Assembly (NCBI GenBank): GCA_010093705.1
Contig: MU006096.1
Location: 1,076,004-1,140,003 of the forward strand
Reading direction: 5' to 3'
Length of the DNA stretch: 64,000 nucleotides
Source of the DNA: Patellaria atrata CBS 101060
Lineage: Eukaryota
Shown here: one piece after another, positions 25,947 to 64,000 of the stretch
Numbering within the stretch: the stretch's first letter is position 1
Layout of the letters: the number at the start of each line of letters is the position of its first letter
Position numbers and translations under genes: made by a program
The notes under the pieces: generated by a model
Seen by the model: the letters and a program-made list of their open reading frames with translations, nothing else
The model's database searches: none
Told to the model about the DNA's origin: nothing

Positions 25947-26759
25947 AACTCCTTCCTTACAAAAACAAATTTCTTAGCGACTTATTTGAACAAGAAAAAA
26001 TAGAGAAAGTGTTCTTTTTTCTTTTTTTTTGGTTATTCTTGATCGGAGTCATCTTAGGGTTTTCGGGAATTCTGAAAAAAACAGTACGGTATCGTCATTT
26101 GAATACCCCCTACAAACTTTTGTACGTGTCATGTACGTTTTTGAGCTCGGCGCGTGGAGCACCCTTTCATCGAACCTGTTTCTACTCTTTTACGGGCTTA
26201 GATTTCTTTAGAAACCTCGTTTTTTTTTTCGTTTTTTCTTCATGACCGGAATGCTCGTGTAGATACCAAATCCAGTAAATACAAACCCTTTCAACTATAT
26301 ATGCTTGAATAAGCGCTAGGGCAGATCACCTACCATCTAAAACTTGCATTGCCACTATTAAAATTTTTATACAATACAATGATACATAGAAGACAACAAC
26401 ACTCTCCTTACCTATCCCATCACTTCGAGTCCCTCAGACAGTCTCCCCATCACTCGAGTCATATCCACAAACCCCAGAATCCAGACCGACCTGTCTCACT
26501 CCTCACACGGCGAAGGCTCGGTTCCCTATCTCTTGCGCAATCGCAGAACCTCAGAGGATTGATCACGGCAGGGAACGCGACCTGGCCTTGTCTTCTCGGC
26601 CCGTGTCCTTGTTGCGATTCGCTGCCCATCGCAATTTCGGTCGTTCCCGTTTACTTGCAACGACCTGGAGAAGCTGTGAGGATGAAAGACGCGTTTGGAG
26701 ACCCGAGGTTATGGTCTAGAAGGACAGGGAGTTCCGTACTGTATGGAGTACTTTTTTTT

Positions 26760-27494
26760 NNNNNNNNNNNNNNNNNNNNNNNNNNNNNNNNNNNNNNNNN
26801 NNNNNNNNNNNNNNNNNNNNNNNNNNNNNNNNNNNNNNNNNNNNNNNNNNNNNNNNNNNNNNNNNNNNNNNNNNNNNNNNNNNNNNNNNNNNNNNNNNNN
26901 NNNNNNNNNNNNNNNNNNNNNNNNNNNNNNNNNNNNNNNNNNNNNNNNNNNNNNNNNNNNNNNNNNNNNNNNNNNNNNNNNNNNNNNNNNNNNNNNNNNN
27001 NNNNNNNNNNNNNNNNNNNNNNNNNNNNNNNNNNNNNNNNNNNNNNNNNNNNNNNNNNNNNNNNNNNNNNNNNNNNNNNNNNNNNNNNNNNNNNNNNNNN
27101 NNNNNNNNNNNNNNNNNNNNNNNNNNNNNNNNNNNNNNNNNNNNNNNNNNNNNNNNNNNNNNNNNNNNNNNNNNNNNNNNNNNNNNNNNNNNNNNNNNNN
27201 NNNNNNNNNNNNNNNNNNNNNNNNNNNNNNNNNNNNNNNNNNNNNNNNNNNNNNNNNNNNNNNNNNNNNNNNNNNNNNNNNNNNNNNNNNNNNNNNNNNN
27301 NNNNNNNNNNNNNNNNNNNNNNNNNNNNNNNNNNNNNNNNNNNNNNNNNNNNNNNNNNNNNNNNNNNNNNNNNNNNNNNNNNNNNNNNNNNNNNNNNNNN
27401 NNNNNNNNNNNNNNNNNNNNNNNNNNNNNNNNNNNNNNNNNNNNNNNNNNNNNNNNNNNNNNNNNNNNNNNNNNNNNNNNNNNNNNNNNNNNNN
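26760..27494. other. Assembly gap (735 N)
   Basis: Run of N preceded by a poly-T tract. Confidence 1.
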
Positions 27495-27824
27495 ATCCCT
27501 TATCCCCTCCATCCCTACATACCCTCTATCCCCCCTCTCCCCCAATACGACAAGAATAATAACCGACGCCACTAACTCTAACACAGGCCCTCGAAAACGT
27601 CCTCCAGTCGATGAACAAGCTAAACCGCAGTCTGGAAGGCGTGATCGCGGTCGGGAACGAGTTTGGCGCCGTGGAGGCGCTGTGGAGCCAGTTTGAAAAC
27701 GTTATGGGGAGGACCGGGGAGGGTCCGGTGGGGGATGAGGGGGGAGAGGAGGAGGGATGATGGGGCGATGAAGAGGTATGACGGGGGGAGTATCAGGTTC
27801 TGAGGGAGGTGGGGATGTGCGTGT

Positions 27825-33096: not shown

Positions 33097-35220
33097 CTAT
33101 TCTGGTTTAATACCTATGAACATAAAGTTATCTGCTTTAATATTTAGAAACTGCGGTTTCGCCCTTCCTCGTATAAGGTCTTCAATCGCAGAGCCATATT
33201 TGATCAATAAATCCTCTTTGTGCGCAGTTTGGAGTATTCCAAGACCGAATGGTACACCGTTTTCGTTTACCCCAATAGGGATGGTGATCACTGGATATCC
33301 TACCCAAAAATCAGCAAAATTAACGAGAGTCAGAACATTAGTATACTCACCAGCTTTAGCAGCAACCTGAACCGCAACACCCCCATCTGCCTGTACTGGT
33401 ACGAGAAGTCCATCAAGCGGTTCCCCTTGTGATTCAAGTGCAGCATCAATTCCTTCGTCCCTTGACTTCTTCTGTATATACGCTAAAGCATTAGTGTAGT
33501 TATCGTTCTTAATTCCCTTGGAAGCAGCACTCTTTTCAAAGGTATCCTGACCCGTAGGCCATGCGGGGTGTGTTCCAGGGACACCGCCCTCTTTCTCGGT
33601 GTGTCTGGTATTATACGCTATGATGTCTTCCAAGGTCTTAATGTTGTGCGGGTTGCTTGTCAAGCCAGAGAGGTACGATTGGATCTCGTTGTAGAATTCA
33701 GTCTTTACGACTGTGAATTCGGATTGTTCCGGGCGTCCTTGTTTGGCTGCGTAGTCCCTGTTTCCAGTATCAGTTATCTCTTATCTCTCGTTTGATGCAT
33801 AGATTATGGCTTTTTACCAGTCGGAGCCCTCAGGGGGTACAATCTCCTCGGCACTGGGAAGGTCTACATTATTCAACACCTCAGCCCCAGCCTCCCGTAT
33901 CTTCTGAATCGCCGTAATCAACCCTTCATACTCCATTTTCCCGTTCGAAGTTCTTTTAGCCCTCTCCCAGATCCGTTTCCACGGCAACCCAAACCGTGCC
34001 CCTTTCAACGCTTCCTTAGTCGTGACAAATGATGAATAGGAAGCTATAAACCTTCTATTAGATCAACTTGTGCACTACGATTGCGAAGAGAGAGTTACCG
34101 TTTTCCAAACCATGACTAATACCGTCTAACGCTATTACGGCATCGGCTACGAACCGCCCAAATGTGCCAACGGTGTCTAGGCTGCTGGACTCGGGGATGA
34201 CGCCTGCGGTGGAAGTCAGACCTACGGTCGGTTTGAGACCTACGACGCTGTTGCGATCGGCTGGGTAGATAACCTATGTTATAATTAGCATTTTATACTC
34301 ACTTAACTTTCGGGGTAGCGGTCTTGCATAGCAGTACATACGCTCCCATCCGTCTCAGTCCCCAGACTAAACGTAGCGATATTAGTAGCGACACAAACGG
34401 CACTTCCGCCACTCGAGTCTCCGGGCGCTTCTGCGAGGTTGTACGGGTTTCGACACTGGCCGCCGCGGCTGGAGTAGCCTTCTGAGCTTGGGGGTTAAGG
34501 TTAGAAGTTGGAATGGCTCAAGTGCGGAGGACGTACTAGTAGGATGCTCGCATTGCGGCCCATTCGGACATGTTGGCGTTGCCGATTAGCACGGCTCCTG
34601 CGTCTCGTAGTTTGGTAACTACTTCTGCGTCCTTTGGTACTGTGGCGCCGACGAGCACTGGGATTCTGTCAGTGGGTGTATGGCTGATGTAGGCATCAGG
34701 GGAGAACGTACTGGTGGAGCCGGCGGTGGTTTGCATGTCGTCTTTTGTTGCTATGTTCTGTGATTAAGGGGTTAGGGGATTTGTGCTAATATATATTTAC
34801 GGCGCCCAAGCCGCGTCAGCAGATAACTGAAATCAGACATACATTCTTAACTACGAAAGGAATCCCATGCAATAAACTCCTTACTTTCCCCTCTTCTCTC
34901 TCCTTATCCATTCTATCTGCGATTAGGAGAGCTTCTGGGTTCACGTCGATTACTGCCCTAACCCACAGGTATCAATAAGTACAATCCTGTTACCACAATT
35001 CAAACTGAAAGCGCTCCTATGGTATGGATCACGGTTTATAGGAATCGTACTTGACAAGTTCATCTACCACCTCCATCCTCCCAAGGTGACATTCTGTGAG
35101 TTCGTAAGAGGTGAATTTCCCCTCCGTTAGAGCTTGTTGTAGTTGTGTGATTGAGTAGTCTTCAATATTGATACCCGCGCATAGGGGCATCTCCAAGTCA
35201 TATTCAGTTTGGTTAGTCAT
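33097..35220 (-). CDS. Amidase-signature family enzyme, 9 exons
   Basis: Spliced: LHGIPFVVKNNIAT, MQTTAGS, ANMSEWA, GYSSRGGQCRNPY, PGDSSGGS, LGTETDGS, VVGLKPTVGL and AGYPVITIP. Eight GT-AG introns give a continuous frame. Confidence 0.88.
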
Positions 35221-40694: not shown

Positions 40695-41350
40695 ATTCAC
40701 TGTCAGCAAAGGTCCTATATGCTCCTTCAAAGACAGGTTGGTCATACCTGTTTTTACTCCATATGAAATTTTGTTTTTGCGTTCCATATACCGCATCATC
40801 TTTTCAGCATTTTTCCTGAGCATCGCATCGGGGAAAGTTTTAGGGTTCAGCAACTTTTGGTCGGTACCATCAACACACCAGGACGACGCAAGAACAAATT
40901 GGGAGACTGAAGCACTCTGGCCCGCTTTTAGGAGATTCTATACCCCCTGTAAAGCCCCAAGTCCCCTGACTCTGACACTCTCGGTATTGTTGTTTGGACG
41001 GTTTAAGCATAAGCGCACGATACCCGCAACCCCTATTCAGACTTAGCAAGTCCTCACACAGAAGACGCAAGAACACTACCTTTAATAACCTCGTTAAAAC
41101 TATATCTATCCGCCATCACACTCACGGTGGCAAACTCAAAGCTCCCCCCATACCTCTCAAAAAGTTCATTAAACCATTCCTTCTGCTTCGCCGCCCGGGA
41201 CGTCACACGGACTTTATACCCGAACTTGCCTCGTTGACGTAGCCGAACATGACGTTGAGGATCCCGTACTTGGTTGTCGGGTAGGCCGAAGTGATGGTCG
41301 TTGCCGAGACCGTACGGGGACTGTTGAACGAGACCGTTGATTGATGTGTA
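40695..41350 (-). pseudogene. Degraded NAD(P)-dependent epimerase/aldehyde reductase (Gre2/Ari1-like) relic
   Basis: GYKVRVTSRAAKQKEWFNELFERYGGSFEF...FNEVIK, intron 41079-41033, then GVAGIV...LQGV*NLLKAGQSASVSQFVLASS. In-frame TAG at 40938-40940. No intact glycine-rich N-terminal motif. Confidence 0.55.
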
Positions 41351-42063: not shown

Positions 42064-43636
42064 TTAAGCGTCTCCAGCCACCTTACTCAACAAACTCGGC
42101 CTCCCACCAATATACAACCATGACACAACGGCCGTGACGAGACAGACGCCTGCAACGACGAGATTCATATTCCCATACCCAATACTATCCTTCAGGTGTC
42201 CCGAGATGAGCGGTCCAGCAGCCAATCCAGCGCTAAAAACCGCAGAGTTGATCCCGTACAGCTGGGCATAGGGTCCTTTGCTGCCGAATACTTCAGGGTT
42301 CATGGCGTAGTATCTCTCAGTCACGGCGCCGGACTCGACGATCGGAGGGGTGCCGATGAGCGCGAGCCCGAAGCCGTTCAGGGCGAGGAGGGAGGCGTAA
42401 AGGGCTATTTGCTTGGTTCCGCCTGGGTGCACCAGCCGGAGGAGAATGAACATGGGCGTGGCGTATAGGTAGCCGATGACGGAGGCTCCTTTGGTGCCGT
42501 ATTTGTCGACGGCCCAGCCTACAAAGGGGCCGAGTAGAAGATCTGTACCCCCGGGCCCGAGAAATAGGAGGCCTGCTTTCAAGGAGTCGAAACCGAAGTA
42601 GTCCCTCGCGACTGTAGGGATGGTGGCGTCGAAACTACCGAGGATGAAGGCTTGCACGAAGGTTTGCCAGGTTGCTGCAATGAGTGCCGGGTCTTTGAAG
42701 CAGATTAGGATGGGGAACTGTTTTATCCATTTGGAGTGCTGTTCTGGGAGGCGGTAAGGCGAGTCCTCGCGCTCTTCATTGGAGAGGAGAGGAGACTCTT
42801 CGTCGGTGGCTCCGTCAGTTGAACTGTATACTCTGTCTCCCTCATCGTTCGCCGATGTGGTGGATTCAACATCGGCGTCATGTACCGAGCTAGTTTCCGA
42901 CTCTGAGGACTGATAATAATCCGCATATCTCCTAGCAACTTTCTTTTCAATAACAAGTAATCGCATGAAGAAATCGATAGCTAAGAGAGATGCACCTAGG
43001 CCGAACACTCCTGAGTAACCAGACGCTCTGTAAAGCGCACCGCCTAAGACGGGCGCTGTTAGGGTTCCAATACCAATGAAACTAAAGATCTATTTCCATC
43101 AGCATCGACAAACTGAATCAGTTCTGCAAACTTACGGTACCAATGGCTTTCCCCATGTTTTCAGGCCCCACTGTCTCTAAGCACATTGCAAGACCAAGTG
43201 TCCAGACAATTGCTCCACTAACCCCCTGAAGGACTCTAGCGAGAGCAAGAGCCGCTACAGTTTGACCAGCAGCAAACATAAGCGTACCAGTTAACAAAAG
43301 GACGAGGCCTGCCATAAACGGGATCTGGCGGGAAGTTATCTTGTCTGCAGCCCACCCAACGATCGGTGATGCTATGACAGTAGAGGCTCCGTAAATAGCA
43401 AGCAAGTTCGAGACTTGGGACTGTATCTGGTCCGGTCCAAGATGGATCCGGTCTTCTAGCATGAACGGAGTGACAGGGACAACGAGAGCGTAGAGAAAGA
43501 TATCCGTAAACATGCCAATTCCTATGGAACTGATGATGAAGAATGTATTTGAGCGCCAATGGAGGCCCCACGGTGGTGTTTCATAGTGCCCGAATGCTAT
43601 GGAGCGTTTCCAGCCGGTTGAGATATATCCTCCCAT
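42064..43636 (-). CDS. MFS transporter (vesicular amine transporter-like), 2 exons
   Basis: WRSNTFFI, GMFTDIFLYALVVP, motif A GWAADKITSRQ, ARVLQGVS, GWAVDKYG and GPYAQLYG. About 12 hydrophobic segments. Intron about 43137-43090. Confidence 0.9.
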
Positions 43637-44552
43637 TTTTGAGATCTTCAAGCGACTGGTGGATGTAATGAAAATGAAGTGGTTTATATGATTGATTTTG
43701 TTCTAACAGTTCTTAGAAGTAGCATCTCGGTGAATAGCGAAAGCTATAACATGTTAATACGGGAAATAAGCTTGATGAGGAAGGCAGTACACACTTGTAC
43801 GTAGTGAAAAGAGAAAGTCAATATGAACCTCGCCCTACGTACGCCCTTCAAATGTACGCCAGCTTTTACCTCTATATGTGAAACAAATCTACCAAATGTA
43901 CAGTTAATGCGAGATGTGTACCTGATATATGTACCGTTTACACCCACTATATAATGGCCGTTAAAATTCGAGCTGAAGAGTAAAACGGTGGCGTACAGTA
44001 ATTCTGACCGTTCACGGTGACCGTATTGTTGGTCTATGACTGCATCATGCGTAGAGCGAAAACCATAAGGGTAATTCGCTAGCTGAGAGATGAATTATAC
44101 TTGGTATTAGAGAGTCATTCATATAAATGACTTTCAATTGGCCCTGGAAGTATTTTTAGGACGTATTTCATGTACTTTTTCTGTCCGCCACCGAATGTAG
44201 GAAGGAAGCACGGTTCGGCTCTTCCTTTCGTCTAGCACGCAAACATTTCGGACCAATGTAGGATTTTATCGGCCCGTTTGAGCATACTGGATGGTTAAAC
44301 GCATATTCTTAGGAATATCAGTAGTAGCAGAAAACATTCATATATACCCACTACTCTAGAACTACAACCGACAGTTGGAATGAAAGTTCACGGTCTCCAT
44401 CCACCAGCTCGGAGGTTGTCCCCACAACCTCATCAACACCTGAAAACACCTGCTCCGATGCCCCATCCCCAAATGCTCCTATTGACAATATAGACCCTCA
44501 TCATGCCCACGCTACGACGCCTATAGTCCCCCTTCAATGCAAATCGTGGAAC

Positions 44553-44693
44553 TTAAACGGGGCAAGACTGCGATCGTATCAGCAACTCCTCCTATACGCA
44601 AAAACGAGAGAATGAACCAACCGCGCCACAGGACGCACAAGTCTTCGAACCACTGCTGGGCGTATTGCATTTTGGGCAGGCCGAGGTATGCAT
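44553..44693 (-). CDS. 28-aa cysteine-rich micropeptide MHTSACPKCNTPSSGSKTCASCGASCPV, 2 exons
   Basis: Exon 1 44693-44622. 54-nt intron GTTGGT...GCTGAT...CAG (44621-44568). Exon 2 TCT TGC CCC GTT TAA. AAG-ATG start context and a TATAAA about 150 nt upstream. Confidence 0.7.
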
Positions 44694-45505
44694 CTTGCAA
44701 GCTTCTTTCGGGGATATGTAGTTTGATAGTTCCGCTGAAGTGGGTGCAGAGCTTTGATATTGCAACTGAGGTCGAGTTTGGATTTTAGGGATTGATAGCG
44801 GGGTAGGTAATTCAGTCAGGGAGGGCTAGACCTCCAACTTTATAGGATACTTATACTACAGATCGGGAGTGGCCGATGGGAGGTCCATGTGATCGAGTTT
44901 TAGCTGCTATAGGTGGGGTGCATTAAGGTTAAGGTAAGGATAGCTATCGGGAGCAATGGAAAAGCACTTTGGTATTATCGGTGAGGTTTAAGGTCATGGG
45001 TTCACGAAATTATCCTTATAGTGAGATGATGTGCGATGATCGTTTGTTAAATCAAATGGGTACAAGTACGAGGATAAGGTATTCATGTAGCAGCTATGTT
45101 AGGAACTGTGCTATAACCCCCTGATATGGTTCTCCTGAACCAGCGTAAGTCATCTCTTCCAACACTTTACCGTCAGTTCGCAAGATTAGAGTGAGAAATC
45201 GGAAGTAAGGTTTTTGTGGACAGAGAAAGACATCGTCATAGTATTCAAAGCTTGATGTGTGGTTATGTACTTGCAGACTCCAAATTCTATGCAAACGATT
45301 CCACGGTTACAATAGGGCAAGATACAACTCCATAGTGCACCCATTTGCATGCAATACTCCCTGACTCCAGAGCCAATGATGAACAAAGATAGAAATGCTA
45401 TTCATAAACTTTTCGAGAACCTCTCGCTAGAATGCAGACATGGACTCGTTATGGACATATAGAATATTTATAGACAAGAAGGATGGATAATTTTGTGATT
45501 CAGAA

Positions 45506-46951
45506 TCAGAAATGCGAACTCCACCTGAGACTAGCGTCTCTGGGAACCCAGAAGTCTTCGCTTTCACTATACAATTCCAGATCTTCGTTGGAGTTGTTAG
45601 GAGGGAGTTTTATTCGTGCTTCGATGGCGGGTGCAGAGACAAATCTAGACTTGAGTAGAGCTCTTGGATCTACCAGATCCTGTAGGATGTTAAGAGAGCT
45701 GTCCCGGACCATCAGTTGGTGTGAATTTGTGTCTTCTTTTCGGCGCATGTCGGTTCTGTGAAAGTTTTCATCAAATGGAGTCGAATCTTTAACTGGTACT
45801 GGTATGGATTCGCTGGATAAAATAGTTGAAAGGACCTTGCGTGATCTTCGTCGATGGAGCTCGGGGATTACAGCATGATCAGCTGCATCTGTACCTTCAA
45901 GTACCTGGAGTTGATGTTCGTATCCTGGGCCTGGCGTATAGAAGACAGATTCAGTCGAGTCGCCAGATCGTTCGGAAGTTGTTCGAGCCATCGATTTGCT
46001 CGAGCGCTTCTCACCAAGATGAGGCTCAGATGTTATCGGTGAGCTTGATTCCATATCTCGTTTCCGATATTGTTTATCCAAAGTATCCTCGCTGCCTACC
46101 ATAGTTGACTCGTCCGTCTGAGTTCTCCTTAATGACTCCTCAAGGAGTTTCTCGCTGACCCGCTGCCGTAACGTCGGTTCAAAGTGAGTACGACTACTTG
46201 CTCCGCTTCCACTTCGACTCCGGTTTGAATAGGCTCCGTCTGCTTTACTACTCATGAATTTGGGGGGTGGTGGGCGTTGGATCATCCACCGAGTGTCCTC
46301 TACGCCTAGTGGCATGCTGACTACCGGAGGGTGAAGGTCATTAACAGGGGCATTCGTGAAGCTAATAGAACGACGAGTAGTCGTACGAGCAGTGGGAGGC
46401 CTCGACACACCGGGGACCATGACGAAAGATCCGGCCGAGCTGGCAGTGAACGAACGAGCCGTCCTCGTCGTATTACCACCTATACGCCAGCTGGATCCCT
46501 CACTTCGTTGATGATCAATCCTTCCGCTGTTAGCGGTAACCCCTGTACCATCTAAGCCAATCCGGGAGTACGACGAAGGAGAGTTATGGTTGAAGTGCAT
46601 GTTAACACTACTTCCATTGGCGCTTTCCAGACTGCCCTGAGTTCCAGCTGACGTCAGACCCCTTGAGCTATTTGTTCGACTCCTTTTGCTCTTTCTGGGA
46701 GCCGGTCCCGGTCCAGCATCTATTTCAGCCTGCCAATATGGATTCGTAGCAAATGGTGCTGGTTGATGATATAGATCTGGTTGCTCCATTTGCAATTGAC
46801 CATTTTGTTCTCTGGATTTCTTCGCTTGTCTTCTCCGTCTCCTCTTACCAGCATACTCAGCCCAGGGTGTACAAGCAACGTAGTAGAAAAGGGCCGACTG
46901 AGCCCCTCGTAGTAACCAGTTACCAGGATGTTTTTGTTCGGTCGAAGGCAT
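45506..46951 (-). CDS. Hypothetical fungal protein, 481 aa
   Basis: Long ORF with conserved-looking islands QSALFYYVACTP, YHQPAPFATNPYW..EI..GPGP, PVNDLHPPVVS and WMIQRPPP in an S/R-rich background. Confidence 0.75.
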   Translation of the reverse strand: MPSTEQKHPGNWLLRGAQSALFYYVACTPWAEYAGKRRRRRQAKKSREQNGQLQMEQPDLYHQPAPFATNPYWQAEIDAGPGPAPRKSKRSRTNSSRGLTSAGTQGSLESANGSSVNMHFNHNSPSSYSRIGLDGTGVTANSGRIDHQRSEGSSWRIGGNTTRTARSFTASSAGSFVMVPGVSRPPTARTTTRRSISFTNAPVNDLHPPVVSMPLGVEDTRWMIQRPPPPKFMSSKADGAYSNRSRSGSGASSRTHFEPTLRQRVSEKLLEESLRRTQTDESTMVGSEDTLDKQYRKRDMESSSPITSEPHLGEKRSSKSMARTTSERSGDSTESVFYTPGPGYEHQLQVLEGTDAADHAVIPELHRRRSRKVLSTILSSESIPVPVKDSTPFDENFHRTDMRRKEDTNSHQLMVRDSSLNILQDLVDPRALLKSRFVSAPAIEARIKLPPNNSNEDLELYSESEDFWVPRDASLRWSSHF

Positions 46952-54208: not shown

Positions 54209-57200
54209 ATGGATACCTTTCGCCTTCTTGCGCGACAAGCTCCCTCCGTGGTAAGTTCTCCCTATAAACGCGCTTGACCTACCCCGGTTCTCGTCTCGTC
54301 CTTCTTGCAGAGCAGCGATCATACCCATCTGGAGTGATCACCTGTCATCCTGGCAATATATCAATTATGTACGCAATATACTTATACACTGTATAGGACG
54401 AAAGCAACGACGAGAATATTGGTTCTGCCCAAGATGATACTAAGAACTCCAATTCCGCCAGCACTCTTGTCTCGACCTTAGTCCCAGTCTTGCTAGTTGC
54501 CCTTCTTTTCTTCGCTATTTTCCTCATCCTTCGCCGCATCTTTCCAAGAAAGTACAGCCCTCGCTCCTTCGTGGGTAGTTTACGTGAAAGGTATGTCAGA
54601 AGCTCCTCAGTTCCATCTCATCAGACCTATTTCAAGTATAGTAAGGCTATGGTAAGATAAACTAATCAATTTTATAGTCGCCGTTCCCCTAACCTTCCTT
54701 CTGGACTGTTCAATTGGATCGGTTCTTTCTTCAGTATCCCTGATTCCTATGTTCTCAATCATCACTCTCTCGACGCATATCTCTTCTTGAGACTTTTCAA
54801 AATCTCTATTGTCTGCCTGCTGGTTGGAATTGCTATCACTTGGCCCGTGCTCTTCCCTGTCAATGCTACCGGTGGAAATGGAATGAAGCAATTCGATATG
54901 CTGACATTTGGTAATGTCGCCAACCCATGGCGCTTTTGGGCCCACGCAGGTTGTGCTTGGCTTTATTTTGGTAGGGAAATACCCAAGTCTATTCGTTGTC
55001 TCTTACAGATTACTGACTAGTATAGGATTCATTATGTTCATGATCACAAGAGAGAGCATATTCTATATCAATCTTCGCCAGGCCTATCTCATGTCCCCCA
55101 TGTATGCTAGTCGCATGTCTTCGCGCACTGTCTTGTTCTCCTCGGTACCAGATGCATATCTGGATGAACGTAAACTCAGAGAAATTCTTGGAGAGCATGT
55201 CAGACGCGTGTGGATCCCCACAGATGTTAGCAACCTTGAGGATTTGGTCCAAGAGCGTGACAAGGCTGCTATGAAATTAGAGGGAGCTGAGACTAAGCTC
55301 CTCAAGCTTGCCAATAAAGCTCGCCTAAAGTCTGTCAAGAAGAACGGTGGTCGTAATGAGGAGGAGCAAACAGGAATCACGAGTGATGGTGCAGAATCAG
55401 GCTCCATTGCTGCGCGTTGGCTTACTCCTAAGCAACGACCCACTCATCGCTTGAAGCCATTGATCGGCAAGAAGGTTGATACGATTGAATGGTCCCGCGC
55501 CGAACTGGCTAGGTTAATTCCACTAGTTGAGGAAGAGCAAGCCAAGCACCGTGCCCTTCATGCTGATACCAAGAGGATCAACTCTGTCTTCGTCGAGTAT
55601 GACAGCTTGCCGGAAGCTCAGGCAGCTTATCAGAGTTTGACCCATCACCAGGCTCTTCATATGTCTCCCCGCTTTTCTGGATTCAACCCTCACGAGATCA
55701 TCTGGAAGAACCTGAGAATCAAGTGGTGGGAACGGGTCGTTCGCGGTTTCGCTACTACCGGACTTGTCACCGCTACTATCATCTTCTGGTCTATCCCCGT
55801 TGCCTTCGTTGCATCCATCTCTAATATCAATTACTTAATCGAAGTTCTTCCTTTTCTCGAGTTTATCAACAAATTGCCCACCGTTTTGCTCGGTCTGGTT
55901 ACTGGTCTTCTTCCCACTATTCTCTTAGCAGTGTTGATGGCTCTTTTGCCCATCTTCCTCCGAGGTTAGTACAGATATTTGGTTACCCTTTTTATTCAGT
56001 ACTGACTATTGACAGCAATGGCGAGACTCGGTGGTGACCCAACCCTTTCTCAAGTCGAACTCACCGTCCAGAAGTCATACTTTGCTTTTCAAGTCGTTCA
56101 AGTTTTCCTTGTTGCTACTTTGGGTTCTGCAGCTTCATCTGCCGTAGGAATTATCATCGACAACCCTGGAAGTATAACTTCAATGCTTTCGAAACAGATA
56201 CCAAAGGCATCTAACTTCTACCTTGCATATTTTGTGCTTCAAGGGTTAGGTGTTGCTGCGGGCTTGCTTCTTGGGATTGTTGGCCTCATTCTTTTCTATC
56301 TACTGGGGAAGCTTTTTGACAGCACACCTCGTAAGATGTACAGACGCTGGTCACAATTGGCGAGCCTCGGCTGGGGAACTGTATTCCCTATCTACACTAA
56401 CTTGTTCGTTATTGGTATGTGACTTTCTTCTTACATCAACCCATTTTTACTAACATTTAGGCAGCGATCTGTTACGCCTGCATTGCGCCTCTTGTTCTAG
56501 GCTTCGCGGCGATTGGCTTGTGGCTCTTCTATTTCGCGTACCGTTACAATATCCTTTTTGTTTACGACGTCAGCATTGACACCAAGGGTTTGGTCTACCC
56601 GCAGGCCCTCCAACAGCTCTTCGTGGGTCTTTACATCGCTGAGATCTGTCTTGTCGGTCTTCTCGGTGTCAACCTTAGCAATGTTGGGGCCATCGGACCA
56701 TTTGCGCTGGTCATCCTCCTCCTCATCTTCACCGCTCTCTATCACCTCTCTCTCAACGCCGCTCTTGGACCCCTTCTCAGCTATCTTCCCAAGAGTCTTG
56801 AGCCAGAGGAGCGTCGCCTGCTGGCTGAGACCGAGGAATCTGCTATCGAGAATAACGGTGCTGGATCTCACGAGCCCAAGCCTGCTGTCTCAACTATCAA
56901 ACATCTTCCCCCTGCCCCTCACAAGAAACCAAGCATGATCCAGAAATTCTTACGTCCCGATATCTACACGGACTATGCCACCATGCGCAGGCTCATCCCA
57001 GCAGAATTCTCCGGCGTCGATTACGAACCCGAGGTCGCACGTGACGCATTTTTCCACCCCGCCATCACGTCGCAAGTTCCACTGTTGTGGATCCCCAAGG
57101 ATCCGATGGGTATCAGTACCCAAGAGATAAGGGAGACGGGCAAGGTTATTCCAATCACAGATGAGGGCGCGCATCTGGATGAGAAGAATAAGATCATTTG

Positions 57201-63358: not shown

Positions 63359-64000
63359 CTACCTCACCGTCGCCCCCTTCAGACTGCCTACAACACAAAC
63401 CCCCCCCTTCGTCCTCAACCTCGCCACACCCTCCGCACCCCTCTCCCCCTCCCTCAGCGCCTCCACATCCCCAACTCGAAACCCCACCTCCGCCTCCTCC
63501 GTTGTCACAAACCCCGGCTGCAAACTCTCCCAAACCTTCTTCTTCGGATTCAGCACTTTCTCCGGCTCGCCCTCCCAGCCCTCAAAAAAAACCCTATCCC
63601 CCGCCACACTCCCCTGTGGGGGCTGCACCAGCTCCACCGGTCCCTTATGCGCGTCCACCTCCCCCTCCTTCACGCGAGGCGAGGCCGCCAACACCATCGC
63701 GGCGCTCTTGACCCCGCGCATCGTGACGGGCTTGAGGTTGCACACGGCGACGATCTTGCGGTTTTGCATTTCCGCGAGGGGCACCAGGCCCGCGAGGCCG
63801 GAGCACACGGTGCGCACGACCTGCCCGTCGTATTCGGAGGTGTGTTCGGTGCCGGGGGGATCCCCGACGGCGATGGTGGAGATGTAGAGGCTGTCGGCGT
63901 TGGGGTGGGCGATGGCGTGGAGGATGTGGCCGACGCGGAGGTCGATGAGGGAAGGGGAGAGGGGCTTTTCGGGGGCGGTCTCTTTGGCGGGTTTGGGCTT
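63359..64000 (-). CDS. ARC1: tRNA-aminoacylation cofactor Arc1, C-terminal tRNA-binding OB/EMAPII domain (5' part outside window)
   Basis: IDLRVGHI..HPNADSLY...RTVCSGL...VCNLKPVTMRGVKSAAMVLAAS...LNPKKKVWE. The frame is open to the window edge. Confidence 0.9.
   Translation of the reverse strand, partial: KPKPAKETAPEKPLSPSLIDLRVGHILHAIAHPNADSLYISTIAVGDPPGTEHTSEYDGQVVRTVCSGLAGLVPLAEMQNRKIVAVCNLKPVTMRGVKSAAMVLAASPRVKEGEVDAHKGPVELVQPPQGSVAGDRVFFEGWEGEPEKVLNPKKKVWESLQPGFVTTEEAEVGFRVGDVEALREGERGAEGVARLRTKGGVCVVGSLKGATVR

Follow-up and report, generated by a model that had tools for sequence, protein, structure and literature searches.

Gene content of the locus

The window analysed here, i.e. the whole stretch of 64,000 nucleotides, carries a short open reading frame (hereafter the micro-ORF) on its minus strand. 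The micro-ORF is located in a gap of 1.87 kb between an ORF of 481 codons (45506-46951, minus strand) and an MFS transporter gene (start at 43636, minus strand). The MFS transporter gene consists of two exons, and the micro-ORF lies 917 nt upstream of its start codon. The site had been described as otherwise empty DNA by a sequence-only reading that preceded this work, and this agrees with the size of the gap and with the five other frames across the site, which have no Pfam match at E <= 1. The other genes of the window encode FNIP, GST, MCM6, SYF1, PAP2, RSN1/PHM7, an epimerase and a SUN-domain protein. These are housekeeping genes, and no metal-handling or peptide-biosynthesis gene was found among the genes of the window.

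The product of the 481-codon ORF belongs to no Pfam family. It has 126 relatives, the best of which are only 35-37% identical, and every named one among the best matches is from Dothideomycetes. Judged from these matches, the source of the window is a dothideomycete that lacks a close relative in the collections. In this protein family, some UniRef names read 'signal peptide-containing protein', the N-terminal Gly/Cys/Pro positions are invariant, and a PVN[DE]LHPPV motif is present. Apart from the genes, positions 26760-27494 are an assembly gap of 735 N, and the long open frames that it creates in each of the six frames at approximately 26300-27700 are spurious. A stop-free frame of 116 codons without ATG was also observed at 43744-44094 on the minus strand; it lies in the AT-rich promoter region of the MFS gene, and its translation is not protein-like.

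Reading frame and intron-like segment

The micro-ORF is a frame of 33 codons, MHTSACPKCNTPSSGSKTCASCGAVGSFSRFCV, opened by the ATG at 44693 on the minus strand and ending at 44592 when it is unspliced. The start context is gcaagATGc, with A at -3. The elements assigned to the micro-ORF and its flanks are collected in Table 1.

Table 1. Elements of the micro-ORF and its flanks (positions in the window)
Element	Position	Strand	Description
TATAAG	44850-44855	-	11 nt further up than TATAAA, at -162
TATAAA	44839-44844	-	151 nt upstream of the micro-ORF ATG
Putative leader	44694-44838	-	G-poor, A/C-rich; no ATG in the 145 nt from TATAAA to the start codon
Exon 1	44622-44693	-	Start codon and 23 codons; both CxxC knuckles, CPKC-x9-CASCG
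Intron-like segment	44568-44621	-	54 nt; donor GTTGGT, branch CTGAT, acceptor CAG
Intron-retained end	44592-44621	-	Nine further codons and stop, giving a 33-residue product
CTGAT branch motif	44578-44582	-	Branch A at 44579, 11 nt before the intron end
Exon 2	44553-44567	-	Four codons, Ser-Cys-Pro-Val, and TAA (44553-44555)
Putative 3' trailer	44341-44552	-	G/T-rich; one TATATA at 44341-44346

The predicted spliced product has 28 residues, including 5 Cys (18%), 1 His and two Lys. It contains no acidic residue and no signal peptide. The fifth Cys is located three residues after the second knuckle, and both this Cys and the His are outside the knuckles. The ATG context, the TATA box, the 54-nt segment, the 28-residue product with its five Cys and one His, and the junction 44622/44567, all of which the sequence-only reading had reported, were found at those positions on the minus strand. 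Two sequencing runs contain the stretch; both are contigs of one sample, probably DNA, and show no joints, which has no bearing on expression.

We defined an intron-like segment as GTNNGT followed by CTRAY 6-25 nt before YAG, with a length of 44-90 nt. Such segments start at 0.31-0.44 per kb per strand, real introns counted in. The introns of neighbouring genes whose positions are fixed by the frame are 46 nt long in the MFS gene, with the branch CTGAT, and 54 nt long in MCM6, and both have the donor GTAAGT. Other likely introns of the window have the donors GTGAGT, GTATGT, GTACGT, GTAGGT and GTTAGT. Among these, GTTAGT at 55965, in one likely real intron, is a precedent for T at position +3 of the donor. 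The GC content is 0.583 in exon 1 versus 0.463 in the intron-like segment. Judged from these sequences, the putative 54-nt intron fits the local introns in size and in branch type, and its donor GTTGGT would be a minor variant. The segment had been called a canonical intron, a term that goes a little too far for a donor that deviates from the GTAAGT of the neighbours. We also considered a model in which exon 1 is joined to the open frame 44351-44497. This model needs introns of ~170-200 nt, and no CTRAY was seen by eye in the ~35 nt before either acceptor; it was rejected.

The codon usage of the micro-ORF was compared with that of the long ORFs of the window. Its log-odds value is -0.23 per codon, which is below that of 95% of 211 null short ORFs and below that of all 290 coding windows. 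This value is dominated by the rare Cys codons and by the amino-acid make-up, and the codon bias of the genome is weak (GC3 0.49); therefore the codon log-odds is not decisive.

Putative promoter, leader and trailer

TATAAA is not a common element in front of the genes of this window. It occurs within 250 nt of the start in one of the ten long genes, and at -40 to -250 in 3.7% of 6,495 short ORFs. Over the 150 nt that precede the micro-ORF ATG, the composition is A.32, C.31, G.15 and T.22, with a GC skew of -0.36, and seven of the ten long genes of the window have comparable leaders (-0.32 to -0.58). In the 200 nt past the stop of the micro-ORF, the GC skew is +0.39; five of the ten long genes have values of +0.32 to +0.40 there. 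The TATATA of the trailer is presumably a 3'-end signal, an assumption that we base on what is known from yeast and other fungi. Both skews together (<= -0.3 upstream and >= +0.3 downstream) are found at 508 of 78,112 position-strands outside the long ORFs (0.65%). These fall into five places, and the largest of the five clusters is centred on the micro-ORF.

The other four switches from C-rich to G-rich are at 34984-35086, 41115-41152, 57012-57105 and 63611-63657. The switch near 57050 is inside the multi-exon RSN1/PHM7-type gene, and the remaining three may indicate short exons or additional small genes.

The pattern of skews is symmetric between the strands, and therefore it cannot alone pick the strand. 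A real short transcription unit at this site might have another product than the peptide, namely a non-coding RNA, a promoter-associated transcript or a plus-strand gene. An ORF of 83 codons on the plus strand (44537-44788) has skews of -0.51 and +0.43, as such a plus-strand gene would, but it has no Pfam match, no TATAAA and T at -3. Furthermore, its Atlas recognition score is 1683, whereas that of the micro-ORF is 2422; the mark of 2300 was reached by 91 of 100 real and by 9 of 100 shuffled proteins. As for a non-coding RNA, no tRNA was found, and no Rfam family reached its threshold in 43500-45600, where the only match was SNORD69 at 43521-43587 (E 0.22, 24 versus 37 bits). It would also be a further coincidence that a zinc-ribbon-like frame stands at the first ATG of a unit of 300-500 nt. 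We regard another product of this kind as improbable.

The micro-ORF is on the same strand as the MFS transporter gene and upstream of it. If the MFS mRNA had a long 5' leader, the micro-ORF might be an upstream ORF that regulates the transporter gene, but there are eighteen ATG in the 916 nt from the micro-ORF stop to the MFS ATG, and the MFS gene has a TATAAA of its own at -52 and its own G-poor leader. This makes an upstream ORF a very improbable explanation.

In the putative leader of the micro-ORF, TGCACCCA was observed at 44740-44750 on the minus strand. We take it to resemble the iron-responsive core of yeast Aft1. By a rough estimate, ~0.07 chance matches are expected in 300 nt on both strands. 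Iron regulation in filamentous ascomycetes involves other regulators than Aft1.

Resemblance to zinc ribbons

Profile searches revealed that the product of the micro-ORF resembles zinc ribbons. The unspliced 33-residue ORF matches Pfam Zn_ribbon_3 (PF13248) with 23.2 bits and an E value of 4.5e-5, which is below the cutoff of 27 bits for this family, and exon 1 alone scores 21.8 bits. CPKC-x9-CASCG is aligned to positions 4-25 of the 26 positions of Zn_ribbon_3, and it has the knuckle layout of that family, in which the linker is short, the first Cys is followed by Pro and the last one by Gly. Lower scores were obtained with Zn_Ribbon_1 (PF13240; 15.7 bits, cutoff 25) and DZR (PF12773; 18.0 bits, cutoff 27.3). 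NCBIfam gave weak partial matches only, the best with 14.4 bits against a cutoff of 45.

As controls, we used ten natural frames with CxxC-x(6-14)-CxxC, nine from related fungal contigs and one from the window. These frames, which have the bare motif, did not exceed 12.8 bits with any family of zinc ribbons, and for eight of the ten no match at all was obtained. The score of the micro-ORF is therefore ~10 bits above that of motif-matched controls. Among 177,635 distinct sequences of the PDB, the best match was 1mea_A, the 28-residue zinc peptide of methionyl-tRNA synthetase (MetRS), with a non-significant E value of 0.063. AlphaFold2, run on the single sequence, gave a mean pLDDT of 56.8 and no hairpins, a result that is uninformative for a lone short sequence.

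From the profile matches and the controls, the interpretation of CPKC-x9-CASCG as a zinc knuckle is supported as a resemblance. The sequence-only reading had assigned the two CxxC motifs to a zinc-ribbon knuckle pair. The Zn_ribbon_3 score, the match to 1mea_A and the low scores of the controls favour this assignment as a resemblance, but the score stays under the family cutoff and the PDB match is not significant.

Comparison with known Cys-rich peptides and proteins

Zn_ribbon_3, Zn_Ribbon_1 and DZR occur for the most part as domains within larger proteins, chiefly prokaryotic ones, and the same is true of four of the five phmmer matches described below; the product of the micro-ORF would be free-standing. 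The E. coli MetRS zinc peptide (1mea/1med) is similar to it in that both belong to the 28-residue class and have CPKC-x9-CxxCGA. The MetRS peptide was cut out of an enzyme of 550 residues, and the micro-ORF product differs in that it would stand alone. We take 1mea/1med to have been solved as an isolated peptide, judging from the chain length of the entry; a peptide of this size and spacing would then be able to fold around zinc on its own. No MetRS similarity flanks the ORF, and a MetRS pseudogene was rejected.

Haloarchaea have C(P)XCG micro-proteins, e.g. in Haloferax volcanii and Brz of Halobacterium, which are stand-alone, shorter than 70 residues and equipped with at least two C(P)XCG-type motifs (PMC11241148). 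By the definition of the family, Pro may be missing from one motif and Gly from one; the proteins are predicted to be built of knuckles, and most of them bind zinc (PMC11241148). With a product of 28 or 33 residues, the micro-ORF fits this pattern class, which is not a homology family: CPKC-N has Pro and no Gly, and CASC-G has Gly and no Pro. With 28 residues it would be shorter than any member in Haloferax, none of which has fewer than 30 residues (PMC11241148). Moreover, the C(P)XCG micro-proteins are archaeal, whereas the candidate gene here is eukaryotic and has a TATA element and a putative intron. No sequence relationship to a known C(P)XCG member was found, as no small protein is among the five phmmer matches described below.

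Short fungal copper metallothioneins are another class to which the micro-ORF product is similar, in size, in having no signal peptide, in being rich in Cys, Ser and Gly, and in being easily missed by annotation. Family-8 copper metallothioneins have ~25 residues with repeated CxC, and about a quarter or more of their residues are Cys. The micro-ORF product has a lower share of Cys (5/28) and matches no Pfam profile of metallothioneins, and it is not a family-8 metallothionein because it has no CxC. A wider form of this idea is that the gene is real and that its peptide is a metallothionein-like Cu(I)/Zn(II) thiolate buffer or a redox CxxC peptide. The five Cys, one of them in the tail, and the His would suit such a function in a peptide of 28 residues, and short fungal copper thioneins of ~25 residues do exist. 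Some of the C(P)XCG proteins of Haloferax bind other metals or none (PMC11241148). Against a thiolate buffer, the Cys content is only 18% without any CxC motif, the best matches among profiles and structures are to zinc ribbons and not to metallothioneins, and the window has no metal-homeostasis gene as a neighbour. Such a buffer or redox peptide is quite improbable in our view, and a redox or metal-buffer role of the peptide is pure inference.

Other kinds of short peptide genes were considered and rejected. A precursor of the a-factor type has a C-terminal CaaX box, with Cys four residues from the end. The spliced product ends with Cys-Pro-Val and the unspliced one with Cys-Val, and a CaaX lipopeptide pheromone precursor was discarded. 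A RiPP precursor was also discarded, since there are no biosynthetic neighbours in the window.

Searches for relatives

A phmmer search of 1.84 billion representatives gave five matches at E <= 1e-3, and none of them is a small fungal protein. They have 154-346 residues; four consist of repeated zinc-ribbon units, and one is a run of CxxC-G-H knuckles. In a collection of 5.8 billion clusters, a word search with the stop-to-stop frame of 77 codons covered proteins of 30-41 and of 42-135 residues, and none of these has three 5-residue words in common with the query. The best Atlas score, 0.89, was to unnamed clusters of 22-41 residues and is a lead only. In the window itself, no paralogue was found (next best match E 0.064). 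The sequence-only reading had put forward tblastn of exon 1 as a check for a conserved Cys pattern. This check was negative in related fungal contigs with a total of 927,773 bases, where the best match had an E value of 0.1 and contained a stop; exon 1 is a query of 24 residues, a length at which homologue searches are weak. In the literature we found no description of a stand-alone zinc-ribbon micropeptide of fungi, in a search that was far from exhaustive.

We also looked for the orthologous gap in metagenome loci that contain an orthologue of the 481-codon gene, using the best 80 of 126 confirmed loci. None of the 80 has an MFS gene within 6 kb downstream of the orthologue. When the 269 window frames of at least 70 codons were compared with the 80 loci, a match was obtained only for the 481-codon gene's own frame. 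The orthologous gap is not comparable because the loci share no other gene with the window. The conservation test is thus of little power, as the nearest relatives available are 35-37% identical in the neighbour protein and have no synteny. As for the 481-codon family itself, it is conserved across Dothideomycetes, and its genomic neighbourhood is kept in 0 of the 80 metagenome loci.

A gene at the micro-ORF would be an orphan and possibly lineage-specific, because no relative was found.

Chance expectation and the setting of the frame

It is necessary to ask how often such a frame arises by chance. Two CxxC-x(6-14)-CxxC strings occur in the six frames of the window; besides that of the micro-ORF, there is an Arg-rich string at 63841. 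The window was simulated 300 times with a second-order Markov model. Per window, 0.48 strings are expected for the bare motif, 0.13 when the motif has to lie in an ORF with ATG and 0.063 when a Met has to precede it by no more than ten codons. The last value extrapolates to roughly 30 such frames per genome of ~35 Mb. A similar chance expectation follows from the Pfam E value of 4.5e-5 if a window is taken to have several hundred short ORFs, a number that was extrapolated. The ORF and the motif alone are within chance.

The setting of the micro-ORF was examined with five features: an intron-like segment that starts in the ORF, a 5' skew of <= -0.3, a 3' skew of >= +0.3, TATAAA at -40 to -250, and A at -3. 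The micro-ORF has all five. Among the 202 other ORFs of 24-45 codons outside the long ORFs of the window, the maximum was three features, reached by one ORF, and it was likewise three among 3,812 ORFs of this size in 80 fungal loci. When the range was widened to 20-60 codons (6,495 ORFs in ~1 Mb of fungal DNA), all five features were found only in an overlapping out-of-frame ORF at 44521-44670. No other of the 6,495 ORFs reached four features, and two others did so at a skew threshold of 0.2. The skew thresholds and the TATA range were set after the locus had been seen, and the ORF had first been picked partly for its TATA, start context and intron. Since the thresholds are post hoc and the ORF was partly preselected on the features that were tested, the setting looks rarer than it is, to an unknown degree.

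It is quite possible that the micro-ORF is a chance ORF in intergenic DNA, in which the Cys pattern, TATA, intron-like segment and composition coincide without function or translation. The motif with a nearby Met is expected tens of times per genome, no homologue was found, the Zn_ribbon_3 score is sub-threshold and the codon log-odds is poor. AlphaFold gives no confident fold, which says little for a single short sequence. In addition, very many windows were scanned, so that rare coincidences get picked up. On the other hand, the five shared features occur in no independent short ORF among the 6,495, and chance would also have to supply the leader free of ATG and the zinc-ribbon score ~10 bits above the controls. 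If the micro-ORF is a chance ORF, it is a warning that a Cys pattern can coincide with promoter-like and intron-like signals, and that post hoc context statistics overstate significance.

A candidate gene for a zinc-knuckle peptide

We consider it plausible, while well short of certain, that the micro-ORF is a genuine orphan gene encoding a C4 zinc-knuckle peptide that stands alone. Support for this gene has so far come from context statistics alone. The sequence-only reading had proposed a stand-alone gene that annotation pipelines would miss. The rare, gene-like setting speaks for this proposal indirectly; no homologue with the Cys pattern was found in searches whose reach was limited.

We infer the transcription, splicing and translation of the micro-ORF as well as the metal binding and cellular role of its product, and they can be pictured as follows. 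The gene would be a small independent transcription unit on the minus strand, extending roughly from 44,800 to 44,300. The first ATG of the unit would open the gene of the 28-residue peptide, or of 33 residues if the intron is kept. In the peptide, Cys6 and Cys9 would be on one turn and Cys19 and Cys22 on the other, and one Zn(II) would be held tetrahedrally by them. The two knuckles would be joined by a nine-residue loop rich in Ser, Thr, Pro and Gly. The fifth Cys, which comes from exon 2, might be a spare ligand or a redox handle. The peptide would be a small basic module of the cytosol or the nucleus, and its most likely role would be that of a small zinc-stabilised adaptor or regulator.

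If the gene is real, filamentous fungi carry free-standing zinc-knuckle peptides below the size limit of annotation pipelines, and a complete C4 metal site fits into 28 residues as an independent gene product. Such a gene without detectable relatives would also bear on de novo gene birth. That it is an orphan, perhaps newly arisen, with its own TATA and 54-nt intron, encoding a minimal autonomous zinc-ribbon protein of eukaryotes whose metal-binding fold came from intergenic DNA, is a tentative idea and on balance unlikely.

Other Cys-rich frames

The Arg-rich CxxC frame of the window (63817-63924, plus strand) has no Met upstream, and its Pfam match, of the rubredoxin type, scores 10.6 bits. 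A motif scan of the 80 metagenome loci revealed ten short frames with the bare pattern; one of them has a Met upstream, and none is like CPxC...CxxCG. Two further Cys-rich sequences were observed in metagenome contigs. The fungal contig L004 has a tandem repeat frame at 1676-2171 on the minus strand, which consists of eight CFECF...CKCFEC units, and contig L037 has a run of ~20 Cys codons at 2331-2400 on the plus strand.
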